From Escherichia coli (GTDB lineage: Bacteria; Pseudomonadota; Gammaproteobacteria; Enterobacterales; Enterobacteriaceae), in assembly GCF_050920415.1 (NCBI RefSeq), contig NZ_CP169309.1: 64,000 bases of DNA, one strand, 5' to 3'. The stretch's first letter is position 1. Each line of letters begins with the position of its first letter. Position numbers: made by a program. Positions 21,001-27,000 of this stretch are shown piece by piece.

Positions 21001-24000
21001 GCAAACTCTTCCGCCAGCTTTTTTTCACCGGGAAGAAGACTGTTTAGCGTGAAATCCGCGGAGTTAAGTCGAATTCTTAACCGCTCCGCAATGCTTTTGT
21101 AGATCATCTCTAGATCTCTTTTTTGCCTGCAAGCCCGGGTAAAGCGCCCACAAATTTCGATTAATCCGTTGAAAAAGCATCTTTTTTTTAGTGATGTGTT
21201 CGATGCTGTGTACCCGTGTTCACAGATGTCTACTTTTTCGCGAAAACGTAGATCTCTACCGCTCAACGAAAAGCATGAAAGCGATCACGAATCCCACTGG
21301 GTCGTCATGTTCTGCCGATAGCATCTTCCTATCCTCGCTCCAGGCCTGCCGCATAACCAATCAGGCTTCCTACTTACAGAATTGAGAAAAGAGGATGTGG
21401 AAATGCTCAGTCAAATTCAACGCTTTGGCGGCGCGATGTTCACGCCAGTGCTGCTGTTTCCCTTCGCCGGGATTGTGGTGGGTCTTGCCATTTTGCTGCA
21501 AAACCCGATGTTTGTCGGGGAATCACTGACCGATCCGAACAGTTTATTCGCGCAAATCGTACACATCATTGAAGAGGGCGGTTGGACGGTATTCCGTAAT
21601 ATGCCGCTGATTTTTGCTGTCGGTTTACCCATTGGCCTTGCTAAGCAAGCGCAGGGGCGTGCTTGTCTGGCGGTGATGGTGAGTTTCCTGACCTGGAACT
21701 ATTTCATCAACGCGATGGGAATGACCTGGGGAAGCTACTTCGGCGTCGATTTCTCTCAGGACGCAGTGGCAGGTAGCGGGCTGACCATGATGGCCGGAAT
21801 TAAAACCCTCGATACCAGCATTATCGGCGCGATTATCATTTCTGGCATTGTGACGGCGCTGCATAACCGTCTGTTCGATAAAAAACTGCCGGTTTTTCTC
21901 GGCATTTTTCAGGGGACATCTTATGTGGTGATTATCGCCTTCCTGGTGATGATCCCATGCGCGTGGCTGACATTGCTCGGCTGGCCAAAAGTACAAATGG
22001 GGATTGAATCTCTGCAAGCGTTCCTGCGTTCGGCGGGTGCGCTTGGGGTCTGGGTTTACACCTTCCTCGAACGCATTCTGATCCCAACCGGTTTACACCA
22101 CTTCATCTACGGACCGTTTATCTTTGGTCCGGCAGCTGTTGAGGGCGGCATTCAGATGTACTGGGCGCAGCATCTGCAAGAGTTCAGTCTGAGCGCCGAG
22201 CCGCTGAAATCGTTGTTCCCGGAAGGCGGTTTTGCCCTGCACGGCAACTCAAAAATCTTTGGTGCCGTGGGCATTTCTTTAGCGATGTACTTCACCGCTG
22301 CACCGGAAAATCGGGTAAAAGTGGCGGGCTTGCTGATCCCCGCAACCTTAACCGCCATGCTGGTGGGAATTACCGAACCGCTGGAATTTACCTTCCTGTT
22401 CATTTCACCGTTGCTGTTTGCGGTACATGCTGTGCTGGCAGCTTCAATGTCGACTGTGATGTATCTCTTTGGTGTGGTGGGCAACATGGGCGGTGGTCTG
22501 ATAGACCAGGTTTTACCGCAAAACTGGATCCCGATGTTCAGCAACCACGCGGATATGATGCTGACCCAAATCGCCATTGGGTTGTGCTTTACCCTCTTGT
22601 ACTTCGTTGTCTTCCGCACCCTGATTCTGCAATTCAACATGTGCACACCGGGGCGTGAAGATGCGGAGGTGAAGCTCTACTCGAAAGCCGAATACAAAGC
22701 CTCGCGAGGCCAAACTACCGCTGCAGAGCCCAAAAAAGAGCTGGAGCAGGCTGCCGGCATCCTGCAAGCCCTGGGCGGGGTGGGCAATATCTCCAGCATC
22801 AACAATTGCGCGACGCGTCTACGTATTGCACTGCATGACATGTCACAAACACTGGATGACGAAGTCTTTAAAAAGCTGGGAGCGCATGGCGTCTTCCGTA
22901 GTGGTGATGCCATTCAGGTGATCATTGGTTTGCATGTTTCCCAGCTGCGTGAACAGCTCGATAGCTTAATTAATTCTCATCAATTAGCAGAAAAAGTTGC
23001 CATTACGGAGGCAGTATAATGACCAAATTCTCAGTGGTTGTCGCAGGCGGTGGAAGCACCTTTACGCCAGGCATCGTGTTGATGTTATTGGCGAATCAGG
23101 ATCGTTTCCCGCTTCGCGCACTGAAATTTTATGATAACGATGGCGCACGGCAGGAAGTGATTGCCGAAGCCTGTAAAGTTATTCTTAAAGAGAAAGCGCC
23201 GGAGATTGAGTTTAGCTACACCACCGATCCTGAAGTGGCGTTCAGCGACGTTGATTTTGTCATGGCGCACATTCGTGTCGGCAAATATCCGATGCGCGAA
23301 CTGGATGAAAAAATACCGCTGCGCCACGGCGTTGTCGGTCAGGAAACTTGCGGACCCGGCGGAATAGCGTACGGCATGCGGTCTATCGGTGGCGTCCTGG
23401 AACTGGTGGATTATATGGAAAAATATTCACCAAATGCCTGGATGCTCAACTACTCCAACCCGGCAGCAATTGTGGCAGAAGCCACACGTCGTCTGCGCCC
23501 GAACGCGAAAATCCTCAACATCTGTGACATGCCAATCGGTATTGAAAGTCGGATGGCGCAAATTGTTGGGCTGCAAGATCGCAAACAGATGCGCGTGCGC
23601 TACTACGGCCTGAACCACTTTGGCTGGTGGACATCAATTGAAGATTTGCAGGGCAACGACCTGATGCCCCAGCTGCGGCAATATGTCTCTAAGCACGGTT
23701 ATGTTCCACCGCAGCAAGATACACATACTGAAGCGAGCTGGAACGACACCTATGCAAAAGCGCGGGATGTCCAGGCACTGGATCCGGATACATTGCCGAA
23801 CACCTATCTGAAATATTATCTCTTCCCGGATTATGTCGTTCAGCATTCCAACCCTGAACATACCCGCGCGAATGAGGTGATGGAACATCGCGAGAAACAG
23901 GTTTTCGATGCTTGCCGCGCCATTACGGCGGCAGGAAATTCGGCGGCGGGCAAGCTGGAAATTGACGAACATGCGTCATACATCGTCGATCTGGCAGCGG

Positions 24001-27000
24001 CAATCGCCTTTAACACTCAGGAGCGGATGTTGCTGATTGTGCCTAACAATGGGGCAATTCATAACTTTGATGATGAAGCGATGGTCGAGATCCCGTGTCT
24101 GGTCGGGCACAACGGACCAGAACCACTGGTGGTCGGCGATATCCCGCAGTTTCAGAAAGGGTTAATGAGTCAGCAAGTGGCGGTGGAAAAACTGGTCGTG
24201 GACGCCTGGGAACAGCGTTCATATCAGCACCTGTGGCAGGCGATTACCCTGTCGAAAACGGTACCGAGCGCCTCGGTCGCCAAAGCTATTCTGGATGAGT
24301 TGCTGGAGGCCAACAAAGCGTACTGGCCAGAGTTACGTTAATTGTGTGGACTGGCATCCGTTGGGTGCTGGTCCGTATTCTTCAGCACCGCTGACGGCGC
24401 ATAACCAAATTTATGTTTAAAGGCTTTGCTGAAATGAAAGGAGTCGAAGAAGTTGAGCGTATCAGCGACTTCGCCAACCGAGTTACCTTGTTGCTTTAAT
24501 AGCGATAGCGCCAGATCCAGACGTGCATCGAGGTAATATTCTTTCGGCGTCTTGCCGGTATAGCGTAAAAACAGACGACGCAACCAGGCTTCGCTACAGG
24601 GGATCGTGGCAGCCATTTCAGCTACGCTCCAGCGTTGTTGCAGACTGGCATGTAAAGTGGCAATTAGTTTTTCAATTTGCCGCCGTTGTGGATCTTTTTT
24701 ACCGTCTGAGTACATAAGACAAATCCACTGATAAATAATTTTCGTCAGAAAAGCGACTGCCAGATTATTTTTTATTGCTTCTGGTGAAGTAATTAATTCA
24801 GCAACTTCGGTGAGTTCCTGATTATAAACTTCGCCATTATAAATAACGCTTTGCTGACCGACGGGAATATCCATCATACTGGTGGGGGTAAATTCCATCC
24901 AGTACTGTTCCCAGACTAAACCTTCACAGTGATAAGAGTGAATATCCATTGGCTTTAAAAATATAATACAGTTGCCATGCAGTGTTATTTGTTCCCCATT
25001 CTTTAAAATAATTTTCCCACATCCTTGTACGGTATACACCGCTACCCATGAGTTGGCGATAAGCGGTTTCTTCTTGTCCCGCGGCCAGATCACCCGATAA
25101 TGCTCGTCGGCGTAGGTATGCCAGAGCGAGATCAGAGAAATTCCGCTGGAGATCACATTTTCGTTAATCAATAAGGGAATATTGTACGGAGTTTCGTTTT
25201 TTACATCCGAACTTTGCAATTTTCCATTCATTTTAATATCCCTCCGGCGAATTATGCTCACAACCTGAACTTAACAGAAAACAATCCGTTCAGGGATACG
25301 ACGTTTGTATTTTAAGAATCTGACTGCCTGACCCGACGCATTTTACCTCTCCCTATATTCATGCGTCCGGGACATAAACATAAATAAGGGCTATGAGATG
25401 AATTCGTTACAAATCTTGAGTTTTGTCGGTTTTACGCTGCTGGTGGCGGTCATCACCTGGTGGAAGGTCCGCAAAACAGATACCGGATCGCAACAAGGCT
25501 ATTTTCTTGCCGGACGTTCACTAAAAGCGCCGGTTATTGCCGCTTCGTTAATGTTAACCAACCTTTCCACGGAACAACTGGTTGGACTTTCCGGGCAGGC
25601 CTACAAAAGCGGCATGTCGGTGATGGGCTGGGAAGTCACTTCTGCGGTGACGCTGATCTTCCTCGCGCTAATCTTTTTACCGCGCTATCTGAAGCGTGGC
25701 ATTGCCACCATCCCCGATTTCCTGGAGGAACGTTATGATAAAACGACGCGTATTATCATCGACTTCTGCTTCCTCATTGCCACCGGTGTCTGCTTTCTGC
25801 CGATTGTTCTCTACTCCGGCGCGTTGGCGCTCAACAGCCTGTTTCACGTCGGGGAATCGTTACAAATTTCTCACGGTGCGGCTATCTGGCTGCTGGTGAT
25901 CTTGCTTGGCCTGGCGGGAATTTTGTATGCGGTGATCGGCGGACTGCGCGCGATGGCGGTGGCGGACTCCATTAACGGTATTGGGCTGGTTATCGGCGGC
26001 TTGATGGTGCCGGTGTTTGGCCTGATCGCGATGGGCAAGGGCAGCTTTATGCAGGGCATTGAGCAACTCACCACCGTTCACGCCGAGAAATTAAACTCAG
26101 TCGGCGGTCCAACCGATCCCTTGCCAATTGGTGCGGCATTTACCGGTTTGATTCTGGTTAACACCTTTTACTGGTGTACAAATCAGGGCATCGTGCAACG
26201 CACGCTGGCGTCAAAAAGTTTGGCGGAAGGGCAAAAAGGGGCGCTGTTAACGGCGGTGCTGAAAATGCTCGACCCGCTGGTATTGGTGCTGCCAGGGTTG
26301 ATAGCGTTTCATCTGTATCAGGATTTACCGAAAGCTGATATGGCTTATCCGACGCTGGTCAATAACGTTCTGCCAGTGCCACTGGTAGGTTTTTTCGGCG
26401 CGGTGTTATTTGGTGCGGTGATCAGTACTTTCAACGGCTTTCTGAATAGCGCCAGTACGTTATTCAGTATGGGCATTTACCGACGCATCATTAACCAAAA
26501 TGCCGAGCCGCAGCAACTGGTTACCGTCGGGCGCAAATTTGGTTTCTTTATCGCCATTGTTTCGGTGCTGGTCGCGCCGTGGATCGCCAACGCGCCGCAG
26601 GGGCTGTATAGCTGGATGAAACAGCTCAACGGTATTTACAACGTGCCGCTGGTTACCATCATCATTATGGGCTTTTTCTTCCCCCGCATTCCGGCGCTGG
26701 CGGCAAAAGTGGCGATGGGGATTGGCATAATCAGCTACATCACCATCAACTATCTGGTGAAGTTCGACTTCCATTTCCTCTATGTGCTGGCCTGTACGTT
26801 CTGTATCAACGTGGTAGTGATGCTGGTGATCGGTTTTATCAAACCGCGCGCCACGCCGTTCACTTTCAAAGATGCGTTTGCGGTGGACATGAAGCCGTGG
26901 AAAAACGTCAAGATCGCGTCAATTGGCATCTTGTTCGCGATGATTGGCGTCTATGCCGGGCTGGCTGAATTCGGCGGCTACGGTACGCGCTGGTTGGCGA

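Follow-up and report, generated by a model that had tools for sequence, protein, structure and literature searches.

The glv locus of a 64,000-nucleotide stretch of Escherichia coli DNA (RefSeq assembly GCF_050920415.1, contig NZ_CP169309.1; called the window here and numbered from its first letter) consists of two intact structural genes, one for a phosphotransferase system (PTS) permease, EIICB, and one for a hydrolase of glycoside hydrolase family 4 (GH4), together with yidP, a regulator gene that diverges from them. The window was matched, with 100% identity, to positions 1 to 64000 of the chromosome of strain MFDS1022581 (NZ_CP169399.1; from animal-source food in South Korea). Considered as a unit, yidP and the divergent glvCB-glvA operon probably form a catabolic module of three genes that is intact and has been inherited vertically, namely, an alpha-glucoside PTS pathway. 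An earlier reading of the window made from the sequence alone (the sequence-only reading) had claimed an intact permease and hydrolase where K-12 carries pseudogenes. The pair is indeed intact, was already known, and is found in nearly one third of sequenced E. coli. What is added here is a description of the exact lesions of K-12 and of the repeat-mediated origin of one of them, the frequencies of the different states of the locus, the distribution of the amber mutation and of the deletion, and a case from gene order for YidP over YidL as the regulator; the current understanding of the glv system is unchanged by these results. The features that carry the main finding are as follows.

21403 to 23019, plus strand: glvCB-type alpha-glucoside-specific PTS EIICB, 538 amino acids (aa), one uninterrupted polypeptide.
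22507 to 22509, plus strand: codon 369 of EIICB, CAG (Gln) in the window and TAG (amber) in K-12.
23019 to 24341, plus strand: predicted GH4 6-phospho-alpha-glucosidase, orthologue of glvA/aglB, 440 aa.
23612 to 24119, plus strand: 508-bp segment missing from K-12 glvG, with flanking 8-bp direct repeats GAACCACT at 23612 to 23619 and 24120 to 24127.

The permease and hydrolase genes are intact

Both open reading frames (ORFs) were open from end to end, with zero internal stops. This bore out the sequence-only reading for the uninterrupted EIICB ORF at 21403 to 23019 and for the GH4 ORF at 23019 to 24341, which is complete at 440 aa. The EIICB protein is RefSeq WP_000951108.1; with the ATG at 21403 as its start, it has 538 aa. 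The length of 545 aa that the same reading gave for EIICB fits only a start at the upstream TTG at 21382, and the start coordinate that it gave, 21403, yields 538 aa. The ATG at 21403 is the better start, since it is preceded 7 nucleotides upstream by a Shine-Dalgarno sequence, AGAGGA, and since the N-terminus MLSQIQRFGGAM and the start context GAGGAT..AAATG are both conserved in Enterobacter and in another enterobacterial species.

The EIICB protein matched the NCBIfam model for the alpha-glucoside-specific PTS transporter subunit IIBC (TIGR02005) with 958.1 bits, against a cutoff of 607.3, over residues 2 to 523 of 538, and it scored under the respective cutoffs of the glucose, N-acetylglucosamine, and MalX models. 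A Pfam scan placed an EIIC domain (PF02378) at residues 10 to 346 and an EIIB domain (PF00367) at residues 453 to 482 and gave no match to an EIIA domain. A GITEP motif is present at residues 322 to 326 of EIIC, and Cys469 lies in the NCATRLR motif of EIIB; the roles of the GITEP and EIIB Cys motifs are general knowledge for permeases of the glucose-family PTS. The 90%-identity cluster to which the protein belongs contains 8565 member sequences.

The GH4 protein is RefSeq WP_000160120.1. The ATG of its gene shares bases with the stop codon of EIICB (TAATG), and through this overlap the gene is predicted to be translationally coupled to that of EIICB. Both Pfam domains of the family are present at full length (PF02056 at residues 6 to 184, E = 2e-66; PF11975 at residues 195 to 415, E = 6e-56). 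The closest structures were those of 6-phospho-alpha-glucosidases, i.e., PDB 6DUX/6DVV, with 90% identity over 439 residues (E = 8e-277 for 6DUX), and PDB 1U8X (Bacillus subtilis GlvA), with 73% identity over 437 residues (E = 4e-225). Matches to the phospho-beta-glucosidase 1S6Y (2e-62) and the alpha-glucosidase 1OBB (2e-13) were far weaker. The record for 6DUX/6DVV gives a molecule name only; we take the protein to be that of Klebsiella pneumoniae.

The motifs of GH4 include GGGS at residues 10 to 13 (NAD+), Cys169-Asp170 in NICDMP, and His200 in GLNHFGW, and in the alignment with 6DUX and 1U8X these motif residues were identical. Cys169 and His200 presumably correspond to Cys171 and His202 of GlvA, which we take to be its Mn2+ ligands, and Asp170 presumably corresponds to the catalytic Asp172; the GlvA numbering is reportedly that of Rajan et al. 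2004. By orthology, the window protein would be an NAD+/Mn2+-dependent 6-phospho-alpha-glucosidase.

K-12 carries an amber mutation and a repeat-mediated deletion

The MG1655 annotation divides the locus into glvC (368 aa; b3683), glvB (161 aa; b3682), and a glvG pseudogene of 815 bp (b4556). The glvC-glvB-glvG locus of K-12 and its flanks (yidE, yidP, and yidL) are the same as those of the window, with DNA that is 95 to 96% identical and a YidP protein that is identical (WP_001300779.1). The two differ in that K-12 has an amber codon in EIICB and a 508-bp deletion in the hydrolase gene and the window has neither, and the claim that glv is disrupted in K-12 and intact here was thus confirmed by alignment with MG1655. 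At position 22507 (alignment column 1128), the C of the window is replaced by T in K-12, such that codon 369 changes from CAG to TAG and EIICB is split into GlvC and GlvB. The second lesion was located by base-by-base alignment: K-12 glvG lacks the 508 bp that correspond to window positions 23612 to 24119, which results in a frameshift. Because the window has GAACCACT at both 23612 and 24120 and the deleted alleles retain a single copy at the junction, the loss is attributed to deletion between the 8-bp direct repeats. The deleted segment starts right after the codon for the Mn2+-ligand His200; the frame is shifted, and most of the C-terminal domain is gone. In the K-12 derivative ER1709, the corresponding genes are flagged "internal stop" and "frameshifted" by the NCBI annotation pipeline (PGAP/RefSeq).

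The glv locus exists in three states among E. coli genomes

The frequencies of these alleles were determined in a survey set of 5426 complete E. coli genomes. The alleles at codon 369 were assayed with 55-mers centered on the variant base, for which each 28-nucleotide megablast seed must span that base. Some part of yidP-glvG was present in 4384 of the 5426 genomes, and about 1042 (19%), e.g., CFT073, had no yidP-glvG match. The 508-bp glvG segment was present in 1652 genomes (30%), including O157:H7 Sakai, ATCC 8739, and E. coli B, and the shared glvG deletion was present in at most about 2700 genomes (4384 minus 1652), or roughly half. The glv locus is thus a three-state polymorphism in E. 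coli, being intact in ∼30% of genomes, deleted for the hydrolase in ∼50%, and absent in ∼19%. The sequence-only reading had implied that an intact locus is a rarity, which did not hold: 1652 of the 5426 genomes keep the full glvG segment, and the amber codon is limited to 348.

Codon 369 was CAG in 3839 of the 5426 genomes and TAG in the 348 just mentioned. All 40 of 40 evenly sampled records with the TAG allele were from a named K-12 strain (MG1655, DH1, J53, C600, MC4100, TG1, and others) or from a genome of K-12 size. In three of three sampled wild strains with the glvG deletion (from dog and cattle), the junction was identical, EIICB had 538 aa, and the YidP protein was identical. Since the sampled TAG alleles are all of K-12 type and the deletion is species-wide and, in the three wild strains sampled, accompanied by an intact EIICB, the amber mutation came later. 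The glvG deletion is old and widespread in the species, and the amber mutation is a second hit in the K-12 laboratory lineage.

An intact pair of EIICB and GH4 genes was confirmed in O157:H7 Sakai (annotated glvC/glvA), ATCC 8739, Ecol_AZ147, and E. coli B C2566. Sakai (glvC, ECs_4623; glvA, ECs_4622), ATCC 8739, and E. coli B have the 538-aa EIICB and the 440-aa GH4 protein at the same position as the window, and the proteins are 99% identical to those of the window; the difference lies in the DNA, which is another haplotype with 96 to 97% identity and about 0.15 synonymous substitutions per synonymous site (dS). In 29 of 29 sampled records with the 508-bp segment (of the 1652 genomes), the hydrolase bears the PGAP name "6-phospho-alpha-glucosidase." The gene glvC is also in the table of genes that differ in presence between E. 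coli groups in Touchon et al. 2009.

Both genes are maintained by purifying selection

Comparisons of the window genes with those of Sakai, ATCC 8739, and E. coli B gave a dS of 0.15 to 0.18 and four to six amino acid changes for EIICB, with a ratio of nonsynonymous to synonymous substitution rates (dN/dS) of 0.02 to 0.03, and a dS of 0.13 to 0.15 and four to five amino acid changes for GH4, with a dN/dS of 0.03 to 0.04. Against Enterobacter, dS was 1.7 to 2.0, with amino acid changes of 20% (EIICB) and 11% (GH4) and a dN/dS of 0.03 to 0.08. The EIICB and GH4 genes are maintained by purifying selection. For yidP, dN/dS was 0.01 to 0.12.

The haplotype of the window is rare: about 18 genomes were at least 98.2% identical to it over yidP-glvG, and others were at most 96.7% identical. 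The idea that only the glv genes had been replaced by horizontal transfer was considered as the source of this divergence and rejected, because the neighbors yidE, yidK, and yidJ are likewise 95 to 97% identical to K-12. Since the whole region is equally divergent, the divergence is ascribed to lineage history plus mosaic recombination, with no foreign glv cassette. Two local departures were seen in the comparison with K-12. The yidL-yidK intergenic segment (25232 to 25397) is 100% identical, versus 98.0% for yidL, 96.3% for yidK, and 95.4% for yidJ, and the 3' end of the GH4 gene (24120 to 24341) is 99.1% identical, versus 95.3% for its 5' part. Such a mosaic of identities around glv and yidL-yidJ is typical of recombination.

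The strains with the glvG deletion have a full-length EIICB, an "orphan" transporter, beside a dead hydrolase (three of three sampled). In four deletion-bearing alleles, the EIICB gene showed 1 to 3 nonsynonymous versus 1 to 12 synonymous changes, numbers that reflect few substitutions. It is conceivable, and in our estimation quite unlikely, that the orphan EIICB keeps a role that is independent of the hydrolase and under selection, in which case the polymorphism would be due to niche-specific selection and not to neutral decay; auxiliary uptake of glucose or maltose, or sensing via the phosphorylation state of EIIA-Glc, would be examples of such a role.

Gene order favors YidP over YidL as the glv regulator

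The glv genes are adjoined by a regulator gene on either side, and the sequence-only reading had assigned the regulation of the pathway to both YidP and YidL. The features that surround the structural genes are as follows.

Before yidP in window order, plus strand: yidE.
20391 to 21107, minus strand: yidP, regulator of the GntR/HutC subfamily, 238 aa, divergent from the glv operon; candidate cognate repressor.
21108 to 21402, no strand: yidP-glv divergent control region, 295 bp, with four elements conserved between genera.
24338 to 25231, minus strand: yidL, AraC family (Pfam AraC domains), convergent with the GH4 gene with a 4-bp overlap and divergent from yidK-yidJ.
After yidL, plus strand: yidK-yidJ, sodium:solute symporter and sulfatase.

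YidP has a GntR winged helix-turn-helix (HTH) domain (PF00392) at residues 3 to 64 and a UTRA domain (PF07702) at residues 87 to 224 and belongs to the HutC subfamily; its top NCBIfam matches were to HutC-type regulators that respond to sugars or phosphonates, including the model for the trehalose repressor of B. subtilis. YidP and YidL were both treated as uncharacterized in 2022 (PMC9308461).

The arrangements of the locus were as follows: (i) in the window, K-12, Sakai, and a third enterobacterial species, both yidP-EIICB-GH4 and yidL-yidK-yidJ were present (with the copies of K-12 lesioned); (ii) in Enterobacter, the order was yidE-yidP-EIICB-GH4-yidH, with the glv module present and yidL-yidK-yidJ absent; (iii) in ATCC 8739 and Ecol_AZ147, yidP-EIICB-GH4 was present and an IS200/IS605 remnant stood in place of yidL-yidK-yidJ; (iv) in CFT073, the order was yidE-yidL-yidK-yidJ-yidH, with yidP-glv absent and yidL-yidK-yidJ present; and (v) in EC958 and other urinary tract strains, the match to the query was confined to the yidL-yidK part. 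The yidP-EIICB-GH4 trio occupies the same chromosomal site in Enterobacter and another species.

Because yidP stays beside EIICB-GH4 across genera and is codeleted with glv in CFT073, YidP appears to be a credible cognate regulator of glv. YidL seems unlikely to be a dedicated glv regulator and would belong with yidK-yidJ, because yidL-yidK-yidJ and yidP-glv occur separately and yidL is divergently paired with yidK. Thus, the part of the sequence-only reading that concerned YidP is supported by conserved divergent adjacency, and the part that concerned YidL is not, as yidL is not consistently coinherited with glv.

Several further observations bear on these two regulators. In ATCC 8739 and Ecol_AZ147 (locus positions 3927 to 5707, equivalent to about 24338 to 29100 of the window), yidL-yidK-yidJ-yidI is replaced by a tnpA pseudogene and an intact tnpB/InsQ gene. 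In E. coli B C2566 (NZ_CP014268.2, locus positions 1191 to 1828, equivalent to 20391 to 21107 of the window), yidP has a 79-bp deletion that causes a frameshift just past the HTH, and the 538-aa EIICB and 440-aa GH4 are intact; E. coli B is thus a natural yidP regulator-null strain, in which the glv operon could be constitutive. For yidL itself, the mechanical ORF (24338 to 25261, minus strand) encodes 307 aa from a GTG, and the RefSeq protein begins at an ATG and has 297 aa. Salscheider et al. placed the transcription start of yidL at the first base of the earlier-annotated GTG start codon (PMC3950696), which supports the shorter form of 297 aa. At the yidL promoter, H-NS acts as a repressor and BglJ-RcsB as an activator (PMC3950696).

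The control region contains elements conserved between genera

The yidP-glv control region was aligned in five sequences from E. coli, Enterobacter, and the third enterobacterial species. Four elements were conserved: (i) TAGATC..TAGATCTCT (consensus, TAGATC..TAGAYCTCT) at the start of yidP; (ii) an inverted repeat, AGATGTCTAC..GTAGATCT, at 21224 to 21257 (consensus, ATGTCTA..GTAGAYCT); (iii) a 25-nucleotide block, AAAAGCATGAAAGCGATCACGAATC, at 21269 to 21293, which hardly varies between E. coli, Enterobacter, and the third species; and (iv) a −10-like TATCCT at 21330 to 21335, conserved between genera. These elements may function as operator or promoter. The TAGAC/GTCTA half-sites resemble what we take to be the operators of the HutC family, a resemblance that suggests a similar use here.

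The AAAAGCATGAAAGCGATCACGAATC block also resembles a degenerate CRP site (CATGA-N6-TCACG) and would lie ∼60 nucleotides upstream of the transcription start expected from TATCCT. Another CRP-like site, at 21209 to 21224, was rejected: it has two mismatches, sites of this quality occur in the window at chance-level frequency, and the stretch is absent from the control regions of Enterobacter and the third species. In a promoter and terminator scan of 20300 to 25500, the overall number of sites was no higher than that in shuffled sequence.

A proposed pathway for alpha-glucoside uptake and cleavage

The pathway that we propose from these features would begin with import by EIICB of alpha-glucosides, such as maltose, isomaltose, methyl-alpha-glucoside, and isomers of sucrose, palatinose and turanose among them. 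Phosphorylation at O-6 of the glucosyl moiety would follow through Cys469, in the IIB domain of EIICB, with the phosphoryl group relayed from phosphoenolpyruvate to enzyme I, HPr, the general EIIA-Glc (Crr), and then EIICB; Crr would be required because EIICB is without a IIA domain. The GH4 enzyme would then cleave the 6-phospho-alpha-glucoside by NAD+/Mn2+ oxidation-elimination to yield glucose-6-phosphate and the aglycone. YidP would most likely repress the divergent promoters at the TAGAC/GTCTA-like repeats and be released by a phosphorylated sugar. Strains with the module would be expected to grow on alpha-glucosides. The GH4 mechanism was reviewed in PMC10628242.

The proposed steps have close parallels in two known systems, to which the E. 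coli module is orthologous: K. pneumoniae AglA/AglB and B. subtilis GlvC/GlvA enable E. coli K-12 to use alpha-glucosides, for which the host crr is required (PMC5309279). In K. pneumoniae, as here, an EIICB without a IIA domain is followed by a GH4 enzyme, and the GH4 protein of the window is 90% identical to 6DUX/6DVV. According to the statement in PMC5309279 that cites Pikis 2006, the Klebsiella system depends on the host EIIA-Glc. The E. coli version differs in that it is known from sequence, with a substrate range assumed from the orthologue. The B. subtilis GlvC (MalP)/GlvA pair, which in E. coli K-12 confers crr-dependent use of isomaltose and panose (PMC5309279), likewise has a TIGR02005-type EIICB, and its GH4 enzyme is 73% identical to that of the window and shares the NICDMP, NHFGW, and GGGS motifs. 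The regulator differs: in B. subtilis it is GlvR, and in the enterobacteria it is YidP, of the GntR/HutC type, that is encoded next to the pair. GlvR is presumably a member of the RpiR family.

Points against the pathway and alternative readings

Several results weigh against a working alpha-glucoside pathway. First, about 70% of complete genomes are without the full glvG; the hydrolase or the whole module has been lost very often, which argues that many niches do not require the pathway. Second, no consensus sigma-70 promoter was found in 21108 to 21402 in the promoter scan, and expression of glv may consequently need an activator or may be silenced. Third, a phenotype of the native E. coli Glv system was not found in the searchable literature, nor was any report of strain differences in the use of palatinose, turanose, or alpha-glucosides, including in the BL21/REL606 phenome papers. 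As for the general PTS components, crr is expected in this genome from its frequency in the species: ptsH-ptsI-crr is present in 5425 of the 5426 complete genomes, which counts in favor of the pathway.

The lack of a consensus promoter also favors the main rival reading, in which the genes are intact but cryptic, i.e., silent in the wild type (through H-NS or a weak activator-dependent promoter) like bgl, asc, and chb, with a phenotype that needs an activating mutation, for example, loss of yidP. We regard this reading as unlikely, though deserving of serious weight. It is in keeping with the H-NS repression of the neighboring yidL promoter (PMC3950696), with the frequent decay or loss of the glv module across the species, and with the description of the K-12 homologues of AglAB/GlvAC as cryptic, nonfunctional, or truncated ("cryptic or nonfunctional"; PMC5309279), and the combination in E. 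coli B of a yidP frameshift with intact structural genes resembles the regulator knockouts that activate cryptic operons. However, a dN/dS of 0.02 to 0.04 over a dS of ∼0.15 indicates proteins under selection and hence expressed under some natural condition, which argues against complete silence, and blocks of the control region, including the −10-like TATCCT, are conserved between genera.

A different substrate class is a very improbable alternative to the alpha-glucosides. Older annotation describes an "arbutin-like" PTS with a 6-phospho-beta-glucosidase: the Sakai record and the JGI names have "PTS system arbutin-like IIC component" and "putative 6-phospho-beta-glucosidase," and glvC is listed as an arbutin-specific permease in Touchon et al. 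2009. However, EIICB passes TIGR02005 and reached only 42 to 44 bits on the beta-glucoside/arbutin models, and the E values of the GH4 protein were 8e-277 and 4e-225 against phospho-alpha-glucosidases and 2e-62 or worse against phospho-beta-glucosidases. The "arbutin-like" and 6-phospho-beta-glucosidase labels are thus superseded by the family and structure matches. Inactivation of the open ORFs by a missense change of the divergent window haplotype, with a K-12-like phenotype, is just as hard to credit: the haplotype is rare (the ∼18 genomes at ≥98.2% identity) and each of its two proteins has four to six residues that differ from those of the common intact alleles, but every motif residue checked was conserved, and the replacements are few relative to 36 to 61 synonymous changes, which is the signature of continued constraint.

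Significance for strain prediction

With the alpha-glucoside pathway as the probable function of the module, the results imply that K-12 does not stand for E. coli as a whole in carbohydrate metabolism, a point of modest importance. Metabolic models and probiotic or industrial chassis that are based on K-12 would overlook what is probably a pathway for isomaltose, palatinose, and further alpha-glucosides, sugars often found in honey, in starch hydrolysates, and in food additives of the "slow sugar" kind. The codon 369 amber mutation, the 508-bp repeat-mediated deletion, and loss of the whole module provide genotype markers by which the phenotype could be predicted strain by strain. E. coli B, as a natural yidP null, and ATCC 8739, as a natural yidL null, are strains in which the regulatory question could be settled cheaply.

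RNA elements near the locus

In an Rfam scan of 16000 to 30000, the glv region was without a match. The sole match was a ROSE_2 RNA thermosensor upstream of ibpA, at 17518 to 17590 on the plus strand (RF01832; score, 98.6 bits; gathering score, 65), which is also annotated in RefSeq.

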